A program made the position numbers. From a virus (lineage: Duplodnaviria; Heunggongvirae; Uroviricota; Caudoviricetes): 40,079 nucleotides of DNA. This document shows, piece by piece, positions 29,501 to 35,500 of this stretch; position 1 is the stretch's first letter; each line of letters opens with the position of its first letter. Where the stretch lies: IMG/VR virus record IMGVR_UViG_2721755728_000013, one strand, 5' to 3'.

Positions 29501-32500
29501 GTGCACTCAGTGACAGTGTCGGGCGACTTGAGCCATCGTGTGCATCAGCAGGAGCATCAATGGCATAGCGCGGTGCCAGATTCGGTAAGCCAACAGCCTC
29601 CTGGAGTTTCTGACAGGCACCAAGCACTGAAGAGTTAGACAGGTTTAACTCCCGGCGCATAAAGTCCAGCAGGATCACGCCAGCCTGCATCTTGTCAGCA
29701 GCCTGTCCGGATAATTTTTCCGGTGCGCTGGTTACCATATCGAAAGTACGGATCACCTTCAGATGGAATGACGGGCTGATCCACATTGCATAGGCATACA
29801 CCAGTTCCTTGCAGACATACGTTCCCCGTTCATTTCCCCCATGAATCACACTCACCGGGTCAACACCCAAATTCTGGGTGTTGGTCAATTCATGAACAAG
29901 CTCAACAGTTTGTTGGCTGGAAAGAAACTTTCCCGGCTCCTTGGTTCTGGCATTTGCACCAGATGCTACTGCTGCGCGATGCAGATCGTTCAGGCTGTAA
30001 CGCCCATAAGCATCACGACGAACTTCAATACCATCAATGACCATCAGATTATTCATACTTCGTTTCTCCTCTTGATCAGGCGGCTGCACCCGCCGTTTTC
30101 TCGTACTTACTGATAGTGATCTCGACCTTCCCTTTCGGGATAACCGGTCCCCACTCCACCAGCATTCTTTTCACCTGACTGTCGTCTTCCCACACACCCG
30201 CATGGGTCAGGGCGTCAAACAGCGCCTTGTTATAGTTGTCCAGATCGCGGATCCGGTTATCCGGAGGAAACAACACGATCTCCACTGAAGCAGGTGCCGA
30301 CGTTGGTTTCGGCAGACGACGTAACTGCTCAACTATTGCTGCGCACGCCGCGCTCTGGAATTTGCGCCCCGCTGCGCTTATCAGACTCTTACCAGCAAAC
30401 GCCCCTTTGTTGGGGTGTCGCCAGTACGTGTTCACGCTGGGCGGAAAAGGCAGGATCAGCTTCATACTTTCAGGCCCCTCTCATGTAACCAGTGGGCTGC
30501 ACGCAGCCTGGCGTTTTCCTCACCGGCAAGCAGTGCGCGGATAATCCCGACCGCCTCGCTGTCGTCGTCCTTCACCGCGGTATGAAGAGTTATCCCCCGG
30601 GCCACGCCACGCTTTATCGTGATGACGCCTTTTTTCTCCAGTGCGCGAAGATGCTCCACCGCTGCATTCACCGAACGGTATCCCAGCATGGTTGCCACCT
30701 CCTGATTGGTTGGCGGAAAGCCACGTTCTTGCTGGTAAGAAATCAGCATATCCAGCACCTGCTGCTGGCATTGAGTTAACGTCGTCATGCCGCCATCTCC
30801 CTGACCAGTTTTTCCGCCTGCTGGCGAACCTGCGCCAGAAAGGCCTCACCACATGCCTCAAGTTCATCGCGCCCGATGTAGCTGATTGCCGGTCCCTTCC
30901 AGGTCTTGTCGAAAACAGCAATAGCACCAGCGAAGAAAGCGCCTGTCGGCACCTGCTTCTCATCCTTCGGGATAAACCAGGCAGGCAGTTCAAAACCAAT
31001 ACGCCCGCGAATAAAAGCAATATGGTCCGCATCTTCCGGCCACCACACTTCGCTGGTGGCAGCTTTGATCAGGAAAACATAGCGCCCGCCCTTATCACGC
31101 ATGGCACTGGCATGTTTCATGATGTAACGCATGCCGGTGATGTATTGCCCCTCATGCTGACTGGCGCGGCTGTATGGGGGATTACCAAAGGCAGCACCTT
31201 TAAGCTCCGCAAGACGTTCTGACCAGTCATGCGCCAGCGCGTTATCTTCCGCCGTGTAATACGCGGCACATTTGGCGTTATCACCGTCAGTAAACAGATC
31301 CAGAACAAACGGGCCAAACAGGGTGTTAATTCCCCAGAAAATGTTGTCCGGCGTGCGCCACTGATCGCCCACTTCCTTCAGTTCATGGGCTGGTTTGTTC
31401 CGCAGTTCCACCAGCGCCTGGCAATATTTATTACTCATTAAGCCCCCACGTAATTCCCTGACAGATACCACTCTTCACCCGATGCAGCGCGCTTGCTGCT
31501 TTTCCGTAAGCACCGCTCACGACGCGCCAGAAAATTGTTTCGTTCTGGCTGGGAGTGGCTTTCACGGAATGCCGCCATCCACACCGTTGCAGCACGACGG
31601 TATAAGCCCCTGGACTCCAGTTCTTCAGCCTGGCGGGTCAGGCACAAAATCACCCGTGGATCGTTAGTGCCGACATAGAAATTGCGCACAGGTCTGGTTT
31701 CTCGAACTGGTTGTGGTTCCGGTTCCTGCGCTCTCTCAGTCAGGCGCGGGAAATGTCTGCGTGTATCTCCTTCACAACGGTGAGCCACACGCCCACTCTG
31801 ACGTAACTTGCTTGCTGACTGCAGAACGCGCTGCCGTGAGTAACCTGCAAAAGCATCCGCAATGTCTCCGGAAGTACATCCCGGATGGGCTTCAATGAAT
31901 TTCTGAACTTCATTCAAAAGACTCATGATCACCCCCTGAATCCTGCCGGGATCTGGCTGTAGTCCACGTTGTCGTAACTGGATTTGAAGTACGGGTCTTC
32001 GCGTTTTTCGGTGTACGTGCTGACGGACGGTGATAAGCGCAGGGAAAGCTCATCCCATTTTTCCCGCAACTTCGACGGGCTGAGCACGTTACGGCACCAG
32101 AACGGATCGCGGCTGACGCGGCTGTACATCTCGCAGATTTGTTTGTGAGTACGACCATCCTGCACACACATCAGGCGAATTTCGTTTGCCCAGGCTGTCC
32201 AGTTCGGTTCTTTGGGACGAACCACCTCGCCGTCACATTCGGCGGCTTGCTCGTACAGGGCGATGATTTTTTTCCAGAGCCACTGTGCGCAGGTCAAATC
32301 ATCCTGCGTTCCCCACTGGCGCTTTTTAGGGCTGAATACAACCGCATCAGGATGGCGAGTTAAAAAATCCTGTTCATCCGTCTGCGTGTCCGGTTGCGAA
32401 GCGTCCGGACGAGAAGGTTTTTTATCTGACGGATCATGTTTTGATTTTACTGACGGATCCCCGCCAGATTCTGACGGGTGAAAACCCGCTTTTTTGCCAG

Positions 32501-35500
32501 ATTTCGACGCATCAAATTTTGACGGGTCAGATTTTGATGCGTCAGATTTTGACGGGTCAGAATCTGACAGTTGAGAAAATGCCGCTGCCTGAAGCTTCGC
32601 AACGTTAAGCTGATAAACATTCGACGCATTGCGGTTACCCTGGCGACGCGCCTTACGCGTTAACCAGCCTTCTGCTTCCAGCCGTGCGATAGCCGTCCTG
32701 ACGGTACTCATCCCCGCGCCAATCTGACGGGCAATAGTTTCAATTGATGGCCAGCACACACCTTCGTCATTACTGAAATCAGCCAGGCGGGCCATAATTG
32801 CCACGCTGGATAATTTCATGCCTGATGCAGCGCAACCATCCCATACATAGCCGGTTAATTTAGTGCTCATGACCGACCTCTATTTCCCTGAATTTACGAC
32901 GAAACTGTTCGAGCGGGCTGAAGCACTCATGCTCATAGCCTTCGCGGAGGTAGATAACTCGTTGTGTTTCCGGCTCCCAACGAATGACTCTGACGGGTAC
33001 TCCGTAGTGATCTTTGAACCAGCGGTTAACTTGTCGCAAAGGACTGTCTCCTTCTGCCGGTTAAAATCACCCACAGCCCACTCTGCAAAGCTGTGGGTTA
33101 CAATTACCCTGCCACCTGGTACATTAACTGCATAGCAATACTCCACCTTCGCTTTTCCACCCGGTACAGGAAGCGCAATCAGTTGCGAGCGACGGTAGTG
33201 TGTTGTTAAACTGTTCATGCGTTAGTTTCTCCACAGTCACGACACGCCACGGCGCCCGGAGCTGCACACTCGCGGGCGTCATTACTTTCTGAAATGCAAA
33301 AAATTTTGTAGACCAGTGCTGCATGCTCCTGCAGCTTCGAAATTGAGAGGTACAGCTCGTCGTTAATTGCTGTCTTCTCATGCGGTTCCACTACACCGTC
33401 TTCAATTGCTGAACGAATCTGTTTTGAATAACTGCCGATCTGTTCAATGACCTCCAGCAGGCGTTGGTTGATATCGGCGTTGTCCACATCCTCGACATCA
33501 GGAAGAGACACAAAGACGCCATTTGCAGACTGCGCCACAGCGTCAGCAATGAAGTGAGTTCCACCAGCACGTTGCAAAATCATTGCCCATCCCAGCGGGA
33601 AAATCTGATCGCCATCGGCACGAAGGCGGTTAAATAATGCGTTCTCTGTTACATCCAGCCAGTCAGCAGCTTCAGCGTACCCCCCCGGCAACGCTGCGAT
33701 AGTTTTTCTGACAGCTTTCACGTACCACTCAGGCTGTTTTTCTACTTTCCAGTGATGCTTACCCACGGTTCACCTCCTGTTCCTGTGGTTTAAACCCATT
33801 CTGGTTTTGGCTAGATTGAAAACGTGCCGGATAAAGAATCTGCATTTCGCTGACTTCACCCTTAAAAAAATTGGCTAAACGTTCTGCAAGCTCGATAGAT
33901 GGAATCTGCTCCAGCCTCTCAATACGACTCAACGTCGCTGGATTGACTTGAACACCCGCAGCAACATGCTGCAAAGTGAAACCATGCGCCTTACGCACAT
34001 TTCGTAATGGTGATTGCATACGTCCTCCAAATATTGCGCGTTATGCATGTTATTTCACGCAATTATTTTGCGCAAGTTGATTTGCTTATCACGCAATAAA
34101 GAAATGTAATAAACGCATGAACATAGGAAACCGAGTCAGACAACTTCGCCAAGCGAAGAACATGAAAATCGCCGATCTCGCTGAAGCGATAGGAGTAGAT
34201 GCGGCGAACATCTCGCGCTTAGAAACGGGTAAGCAAAAACAATTTACCGAACAAACACTGAGTAATATTGCCAAGAGCTTAGGTGTTGATATTGCTGATC
34301 TCTTTACCTCTGCCCACAAAAGTAATACTGTATATAAAAACAGTAATAATGAGGATGTTGCGCAGGTGAAGGATGTGTTCCGTATTGAAATGCTGGATAT
34401 CAGTGCCAGTGCGGGAAATGGCCTTATCCAGGGCGGTGATGTCATTGATGTGATTCATGCCATCGAATACAGAACTGATAATGCTGTATCAATGTTCGGC
34501 GGACGACCAGCCAATCACATCAAAGTTATCAACGTTCGTGGGGACAGTATGTGTCCAACCATTGAGCCAGGAGATCTCATCTTCGTTGATGTCAGCATCA
34601 ATCAGTTTGATGGTGATGGTATATATGTCTTTGGTTTTGATGACAAAATATACGTTAAAAGACTTCAAATGATTCCTGACAAACTGCTGGTGATTTCTGA
34701 TAACCAGATTTACCGTGAATGGGGAATTACTAGCGAAAACGAACACCGATTCATGGTCTTTGGAAAGGTCTTAATCAGTCAGTCGCAAACCCTTAAGAGA
34801 CATAATTAACCTCAATATCCCATCCATCGGCCACCGAAAGGTGGCTTTTTATTACCTATAAATTTGCATATCACGCAAATATCACTTGCATATCTCGCAA
34901 TTTAATTTTATCTTTTGTTCCAGACCAACTACAGGATTACAACAAAATCTGGTTGCAACACGGTGCATGTGTCGTAAGCAGTCAGTAAATGTCAAAAACG
35001 AACAGGCAGGACGCCCACGAAGTAGCCGCCTGGGGCATATGAAGTCCAGGATGATTCGTTAGCAACAAAAAAGCGCCCTACAGGACGCTTAGCTCTTTAA
35101 CAATCTGGATATCCACAACAGTAGTAATCTACAGATTGCCGTTAAGTTTTCTGGACAACTCCTCAATGGATGGAGGCGATACGTAATCCGGATTTTTATT
35201 CATCAGAAACTTATTTTCACAGTGGAGGCACCTGCTTTTATGAAAAAGCTCATCTTCGCTAACCGGGAATGGTTGAAGTATCGATACTATCTTTTGTCCA
35301 AAACATTTTGGGCAAAGATGCATGGTTATGCTGCCACCGTTCACGATTACCTCCTTCGAGTATACAAAAGTACCCGACTCAAGTTGGTTAAGGATATAGC
35401 CTTCCGTCTGAGCCTCAAAGTTTTCGAATTCTGCAATTTTAGCTTTGAGAGAAGCATTTATTTCTTGATAAGAGCCCACCAGTTCAACGAGAGACACGCA

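Follow-up and report, generated by a model that had tools for sequence, protein, structure and literature searches.

A candidate lambda-like iteron origin and a DnaT-like initiator tail in a lambdoid phage module lacking a known helicase loader

Iterons placed inside the initiator gene are the textbook design of lambdoid phages. In lambda, gene O lies after cro and cII, carries its iterons and an AT-rich stretch in the middle of the gene, in the part that encodes the interdomain linker, and is followed by P. Here, we analyzed a 40,079-nucleotide stretch of Caudoviricetes DNA (IMG/VR record IMGVR_UViG_2721755728_000013, hereafter the window) whose minus strand carries an O-like replication initiator gene with a repeat array at its center. 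The locus shares with lambda the intragenic position of the repeats and AT-richer stretch, a homologous C-terminal core, and the place of the initiator gene in the operon. Four features set it apart: the N-terminal domain is of HTH_36 type rather than Phage_rep_O; the repeats are up to eight abutting 15-bp units instead of four 18–19-bp iterons; a PerC-like gene comes next in place of P, which the phage lacks; and the protein ends in ...IPAGFRG, whereas lambda O ends in ...NTDWIYGVDL.

Other described systems resemble the locus in complementary ways. The initiators of Rac (YdaU-YdaV), Gifsy-1, SPN3UB, and Shigella phage 75/02 Stx also end in a DnaT-like tail, ...PD..IP.GFRG, but unlike the window phage, each has its own close DnaC homolog directly downstream; at a further locus, L069, the core is of lambda-O type and the architecture of the window is joined by a DnaC gene. 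Escherichia coli DnaT shares the C-terminal peptide (8/9 identical), and in K-12 dnaT lies immediately before dnaC (4600238–4601517), mirroring the phage initiator-DnaC order. However, the window protein lacks both the DnaT N-terminal domain and PF17948, and DnaT, together with PriA and PriB, serves abandoned forks rather than an origin. The initiators of iteron plasmids (RepA, pi, TrfA) likewise combine a winged helix with direct repeats that adjoin an AT-rich region, and they use the host helicase and loader, none being encoded by the element; they differ in that the putative origin described here lies inside the initiator gene and has no nearby DnaA boxes. The relationship to plasmid initiators, judged by Pfam only, amounts to an RP-C N-terminal match at E 0.005, below the cut-off. 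Loaderless 'initiator-solo' phage modules were reportedly catalogued by Weigel and Seitz in 2006. The 'replisome organizer' proteins of Firmicutes (DnaD, SPP1 G38P-G39P) were also counted among the comparable systems; those of DnaD type are recognized by a DnaD N-terminal winged helix together with a C-terminal domain of DDBH2 type.

The elements of the initiator gene are as follows.

31929–32870, minus strand: replication initiator gene, 313 amino acids (aa), from the list of open reading frames (ORFs); phrog_391 'replication initiation O-like' at E 1e-135, BLASTP to lambda O at E 7e-26, domain layout from AlphaFold 2
32577–32870, minus strand: N-terminal winged-helix DNA-binding domain, aa 1–98; Pfam HTH_36 at E 4e-11, Foldseek matches to MarR/ArsR-type winged helix-turn-helix structures
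32031–32375, minus strand: lambda-O-type C-terminal helical core, aa 166–280
31932–31958, minus strand: terminal peptide SQIPAGFRG, aa 305–313, the DnaT-like tail
32465–32572: iteron array, from repeat detection and a position matrix; six good 15-bp units at 32465–32479, 32498–32512, 32513–32527, 32528–32542, 32543–32557, and 32558–32572 (the last weaker)
32420–32434 and 32444–32458: two degenerate iteron copies, TGACGGAT, within the AT-richer stretch 32420–32459

A prior sequence-only reading of this DNA had described at least six direct repeats of ~15 bp within an O-like gene, with further copies in an adjacent AT-rich stretch. Both observations were borne out. Tandem Repeats Finder detected a 15-bp period with 4.3 copies at 32498–32561 (consensus CAGATTTTGACGGGT), and a direct-repeat search prolonged the array through 32543–32572 and added copies at 32450–32479 and 32424–32447, giving eight units in total between 32420 and 32572, six good and two degenerate. 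Allowing up to three mismatches, the 15-mer matches seven times in the 40-kb window, six of them inside 32465–32566, a ~7-fold excess over the 1.04 expected and a count reached in 0 of 100 shuffles. On the coding strand, the unit consensus is TCTGACNCNTCAAAA, read as TCT GAC NCN TCA AAA and translated as S-D-x-S-K, and its core is a dyad, TGAC-NN-GTCA. A position matrix built from 119 distinct units of 60 related genes has fixed flanks (TCTGA ... TCAAAA) and a variable center. The stretch at 32420–32459, which still holds iteron-like copies, is modestly AT-rich (35% GC versus ~52% nearby) and is a candidate unwinding region that transcription would reach after the iterons, as it does in lambda. 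The 'DPSV' encoded by the degenerate copies is invariant in 25 homologs. All repeats fall within the initiator ORF and encode residues ~100–150, a disordered, low-complexity linker between the N-terminal domain and the core in the AlphaFold 2 layout.

The O-like identity and the likeness to ori-lambda hold for the intragenic linker position and for the core, where initiator residues 175–277 align with lambda O 181–270 at the E-value given above, but do not extend to the N-terminal domain. PHROG matches are reciprocal, in that lambda O matches phrog_391 at 3e-39 and both proteins match phrog_2357. At the N-terminus, Pfam returned HTH_36, GntR, and MarR-like matches and no Phage_rep_O (PF04492), which lambda O itself matches at 6e-36; a jackhmmer search with the lambda O N-domain recovered 0 of 77 relatives. 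A PDB sequence search and a Foldseek search with the full-length model gave generic winged-helix matches to the N-domain only. This domain is presumably the iteron reader. Many relatives with the window-type N-domain and iterons have Phg_2220_C as their C-terminal core.

Comparison with related loci strengthens the case for a cis-acting array. We fetched 80 related loci, one genome per species, and compared 77 full-length initiator genes, of which 75 have a tandem array in the linker region (nucleotides 290–500). The repeat unit changes with the DNA-binding domain. All genes with an N-domain at least 71% identical to that of the window have the same 15-bp unit, TCTGACNCNTCAAAA, in Escherichia, Enterobacter, the Klebsiella group, Yersinia, Rahnella, Providencia, and others; at 59–65% identity the unit is a different 15-mer of TTGACCCCCCAA type; and remoter N-domains go with unrelated units of period 15 or 22–24 bp. 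Across the 77 genes, iteron sequence follows N-domain type whatever the C-terminal domain. We also compared codon usage at fixed coordinates (codons 99–135) in 64 distinct genes with the rest of the same genes. Serine is encoded by TCT or TCA in 83% of linker codons versus 27% elsewhere and by AGY in 5% versus 47%, while AAA accounts for 98% of linker lysine codons versus 61% elsewhere. Such a skew in synonymous choice points to a constraint on the DNA, and not on the peptide alone. Together, the covariation of repeat and N-domain and the constrained codons argue for a cis-acting role. The placement is also close to that in lambda, the array occupying gene nucleotides 299–451 and the lambda iterons 349–433, and in either gene the AT-richer part follows downstream (PMC7466680). 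On these comparisons, the array is very probably a replication origin.

Iteron copy number varies even where prophages are otherwise identical: near-identical initiators (P0007, P0016, P0020, P0030, P0069) differ by whole five-codon units, spanning 274–329 aa, and some, which keep only the two invariant GATCCGTCA copies, may be replication-defective. Two GATC sites lie in the AT-richer stretch (32432–32435 and 32456–32459), one in each degenerate copy (TGACGGATC), and a Dam gene of the phage itself follows the initiator as the second gene; the origin may be controlled by methylation. In a Shigella flexneri locus (CP182557), the initiator is 100% identical to that of the window and the downstream genes differ, with a divergent YfdN and no Dam, which suggests that the origin-initiator cassette moves as a unit between early operons.

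Helicase, loader, and primase genes of known families are absent from the phage. Three P-type queries (the P proteins of lambda and phiV10 and the P-like protein of Rac-SA53), two DnaC queries (from E. coli and from an Aeromonas phage), and DnaB gave nothing below E 0.1 in tblastn searches of the window, while lambda O, used as a positive control, found the initiator at 3e-23. A six-frame search for Walker-A motifs gave a single match, outside any genic frame, and no early ORF matches the P-like family phrog_109. In the complete genome of SfII (41.5 kb), a plaque-forming relative with the same module, no P-, DnaC-, or DnaB-like gene and no helicase, loader, or primase is annotated. The absence of P-like and DnaC-like genes claimed from the sequence alone thus stands, and no cryptic loader was detected in the window, the exclusion covering known loader families. 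The initiator module is 97–99% identical in isolated phages, and SfIV, whose copy is 98% identical, is UV-inducible and forms plaques; the module therefore appears functional without a known loader.

The sequence-only reading had raised the possibility that the initiator C-terminus does the work of a loader and had proposed a search for DnaT-like or conserved phage C-terminus profiles. Identities of both kinds were rejected for the C-terminal half of the window protein, which has no Pfam or NCBIfam match. In particular, residues 165–313 have no Pfam match even at E 10, the three-helix DNA-binding domain of DnaT (PF17948) included, and jackhmmer with DnaT 84–165 recovered only SPN1S. What did match DnaT is the last nine residues. 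The window protein ends in ...DYSQIPAGFRG and E. coli DnaT in ...DSQIPPGFRG, 8/9 identical and at the extreme C-terminus of both proteins. Across 25 homologs, conservation of residues P308, G310, F311, and R312 is complete or reaches at least 90%, and one subfamily has the sequence SEPDTEIPPGFRG. In two relatives with different cores, the match to DnaT extends over 20 residues (L080, lambda-O-type core, E 1e-7; L044, Phg_2220_C core, E 5e-8). We regard the tail as homologous to that of DnaT on the strength of these alignments. The helicase-coupling element is likely this extreme C-terminal peptide and not a folded C-terminal domain.

The tail goes with loader type. We classified 83 initiators by core (lambda-O type, Phg_2220_C, or DnaT domain), tail, and loader within 5 kb on either side; the comparison as a whole included ~95 initiators, with cores assigned by seeded jackhmmer. 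Three tail classes were distinguished.

Tail WNx4WE or TDWIxG: directly followed by a P-like gene in 12/12, on all three cores (lambda, phiV10, TL-2011b, Rac-SA53, L059, and others)
Tail PxGFR: never a P-like neighbor; no loader in 47 (46 loci and SPN1S); close DnaC homolog in L069 and Aeromonas pAEv1818, the latter with the tail PPGFN
Tail WxxIW: 19 loci with no known loader

The reverse comparison agrees. In 7/7 enterobacterial phages with a close DnaC homolog (48–51% identity to E. coli DnaC), namely Shigella phage 75/02 Stx, vB_EcoS-673R7, Rac 442/2, Gifsy-1, SPN3UB, Klebsiella ST846phi9.2, and Kp4884-1, the upstream initiator ends in ...PD..IP.GFRG, while three phages with a distant IstB-like 'DnaC' (~33% identity) have other tails. 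Fisher's test of tail against loader type gave p = 3e-6, and 9e-5 after dereplication by tail sequence, values that, like the counts, overstate independence since the loci share ancestry. The pairing recurs across different cores and N-domains, which favors functional coupling over linkage.

Two Rac alleles differ in both elements. In Rac-SA53 (L086), YdaU ends in ...CTDWRDD and is accompanied by a P-like 'YdaV' (phrog_109), and in Rac 442/2 (L173) YdaU ends in ...IPPGFRG beside a DnaC-like YdaV; from the sequences, this looks like a natural joint swap of tail and loader. The initiator of an uncultured Serratia metagenome-assembled genome (L072) ends in ...GDIPEGFNQNLPATNQGGTDDDFI, with an internal IPEGF followed by an acidic tail resembling the SSB C-terminal tip, and is followed by a close DnaC homolog. 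The WxxIW tails, of the form ...W(N)xIWK(E)..Q.. and with a 40–60-aa extension, occur on lambda-O-type and Phg_2220_C cores (L012, L015, L016, L018, L020–22, L035, L051, L057, L060, L064, L065, L070, L073–75, L081, and L082). Within 5 kb of these initiators we found no P, DnaC, or DnaB homolog; MT-A70 methylases, KilA-N, or DUF968 lie downstream.

We propose that region 32420–32572 would be a phage replication origin built like ori-lambda, placed where the initiator gene encodes its linker. The N-terminal winged helix, as a dimer, would bind the arrayed dyads in an O-some-like complex, and the adjacent AT-richer stretch would open, perhaps aided by transcription from the cro promoter, as extrapolated from lambda. 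The flexible C-terminal tail, a peptide also borne by host DnaT and by the initiators of phages that encode DnaC, would then dock host DnaB-DnaC, most likely via DnaC, on the opened origin, so that a DnaT-like tail would take the place of lambda's Trp-rich tail and P protein. Iteron binding, origin firing, and the host partner of the tail are what we infer here, and we lean, with some reserve, towards the model as a whole.

Several points weigh against it. The similarity between the window protein and DnaT spans just nine residues (pairwise E 0.009), and the AT-rich stretch is weaker than that of lambda. The WxxIW class is also without a known loader, so that loader absence is not specific to the DnaT-like tail. 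The shared ancestry of the loci tempers the statistics given above. On the host side, a direct interaction of DnaC with PriA, PriB, or DnaT had never been demonstrated according to a 2024 JBC paper (PMC11087952). Ducos et al. (2026) proposed the DnaT N-terminal domain, which the phage initiator lacks, as the DnaB/DnaC recruiter and found that the DnaT C-terminal domain docks hydrophobically on PriA (PMC13377028); the phage tail could thus be a PriA contact. The structure and role of DnaT 154–179 were described as unknown in 2014 (PMC4132743).

The genes around the initiator bear on the alternatives. On the minus strand the order is cro-like, CII/YmfL, a DUF4222 ORF, the initiator, PerC-like YfdN, Dam, a LexA-DNA-binding-domain protein, RusA, KilA-N, HNH/NinG-like, and Q, with cI divergent on the plus strand. 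ORF, Pfam, and PHROG annotation agree on the series from the O-like gene to RusA, as the sequence-only reading had given it.

32880–33218, minus strand: YmfM-like ORF, 112 aa, phrog_1170; overlaps the DUF4222 ORF in another frame
32860–33039, minus strand: DUF4222 ORF, 59 aa; Pfam DUF4222 at E 9e-19, phrog_1343; shares 11 nucleotides at its 3′ end with the start of the initiator gene
31438–31932, minus strand: PerC-like (YfdN) gene; Pfam PerC at E 8e-9, phrog_1324 transcriptional activator
30785–31471, minus strand: Dam methyltransferase gene
30462–30788, minus strand: LexA DNA-binding-domain-only protein, 108 aa, E 3e-19, with no S24 peptidase domain

The PerC-like gene occupies the position of lambda P and overlaps the stop of the initiator gene with its own start. 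Of all neighbors of this initiator type, the DUF4222 ORF is the best conserved, present in 67 of 71 loci and, by tail class, in 42/44, 18/18, and 6/8; public records annotate either this ORF or the overlapping YmfM-like one.

We considered four rival explanations. In descending order of confidence they are the hijacking of PriA with its preprimosome, a plasmid-like route through DnaA, a phage loader of an unrecognized kind, and repeats that have no origin function. In the PriA explanation, the initiator opens the origin and its tail recruits the restart machinery (PriA, perhaps PriB/PriC), imitating DnaT in the preprimosome that loads DnaB-DnaC. The DnaT C-terminal domain binds the HD2/C-terminal domain of PriA through a hydrophobic, conserved interface (PMC13377028), the phage tail is hydrophobic too (I-P-x-G-F), and some initiators hold a whole DnaT DNA-binding domain in addition to the tail, as does SPN1S with PF17948. 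A PriA-docking peptide, however, would not be expected to pair with close phage DnaC homologs in 9/9 cases and never with P-like genes, and the DnaT domain responsible for the filament on single-stranded DNA is missing from the window protein; we consider this route unlikely. Loading in the manner of iteron plasmids, with the initiator and host DnaA bringing DnaB-DnaC and the tail serving otherwise (oligomerization or single-stranded DNA binding), would fit the many iteron replicons that have no loader of their own and rely on DnaA. It would also fit the ~two-fold loss of single-stranded DNA affinity, with less cooperativity, on removal of DnaT 154–179 (PMC4132743). It appears improbable given that a scan for DnaA boxes, suggested by the sequence-only reading, found none with up to one mismatch within ~650 bp of the iterons, and it leaves the strict pairing of tail and loader type unexplained.

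An encoded loader of an unrecognized family, with the PerC-like YfdN, the product of the DUF4222 ORF, and other small early proteins as candidates, has precedent in the non-homologous loaders still being found, such as VdhL1/2 (PMC11087808). Several early ORFs have no known function, and the overlap of yfdN with the stop codon of the initiator gene recalls that of P with O. Distribution across loci speaks against such a loader, to which we give little credence: YfdN-like genes occur in just 19 of 44 loci with the PxGFR tail, DUF4222 is present in every tail class, including loci with a P gene, SfIV lacks Dam, and among the neighbor families of the 71 loci with enough flank none occurs throughout the loaderless loci and nowhere else. 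YfdN and DUF4222 were rejected as cryptic loaders on these grounds. Finally, the repeats could be no more than a slippage-prone Ser/Asp/Lys-rich linker without a cis role, the origin lying elsewhere. They do encode a disordered low-complexity linker, and their number does differ among close homologs of 274–329 aa. Yet the repeat sequence follows the DNA-binding domain, the synonymous codons are fixed, the unit holds a dyad core, and both the position and the C-terminal domain have their counterparts in ori-lambda and lambda O, all of which makes this explanation very improbable. A lambda-like origin whose initiator docks host DnaB-DnaC through its DnaT-like tail remains the reading we prefer.

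Other genes of the window lie outside this module, and a tRNA scan found none.

27032–28129, plus strand: full-length OmpC/NmpC-type porin gene; Porin_1 at E 2e-156
24948–25241: Bor, beyond the lysis genes
24124–24657: DUF1398 gene, beyond the lysis genes

The porin gene, on the opposite strand, is flanked by the Q antiterminator on one side and the lysis cassette on the other, and is likely a lysogenic-conversion gene by its sequence. The LexA-domain-only gene is kept in the early operons of SfII and SfIV, and from its domain content the protein might bind SOS boxes yet be uncleavable.

The module has been sequenced before and is present in GenBank phages as 'replication protein O' or 'primosomal protein'; IMG/VR holds at least 594 relatives, nearly all near-identical copies. 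Prophages of E. coli and Shigella carry it very commonly, the serotype-converting phages SfII and SfIV among them, and it bears on how lambdoid phages without P or DnaC bring the host helicase to the origin. The association of tail and loader appears unreported: the searchable literature contained neither such an association nor any proposal that the DnaT-like tail serves for docking, and a search on the tail motif returned collagen papers only.

More tentatively, the C-terminal peptide may be a portable 'loader code' in enterobacterial phage initiators, with Trp-rich acidic tails (lambda O NTDWIYGVDL; HWNSPEAWENTL) specifying P-type loaders and PxGFRG specifying DnaC-type loaders. The tail of DnaT, instead of or besides its N-terminal domain, could then be the contact through which the preprimosome (PriA-PriB-DnaT) recruits DnaB-DnaC; dnaT-dnaC could be a domesticated phage initiator-loader pair; and the window phage could have dropped the loader and kept the docking peptide. 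Enterobacterial dnaC has been reported to be phage-derived (PMC5109545). Because dnaT (IPPGFRG) followed by dnaC mirrors a phage initiator (PxGFRG) followed by DnaC, dnaT may derive from a phage initiator that was truncated and domesticated and that came in together with dnaC.

The pattern nominates a lambda O peptide as the element recognized by P, whose engagement of the O-some is structurally unresolved (PMC12661323). It also nominates the DnaT C-terminal peptide as the recruiter of DnaB-DnaC to the restart primosome, a step called 'unknown' in papers of 2024–2026 (PMC11087952, PMC13377028). If this is true, exchanging nine residues would be predicted to change which loader a phage replicon depends on.

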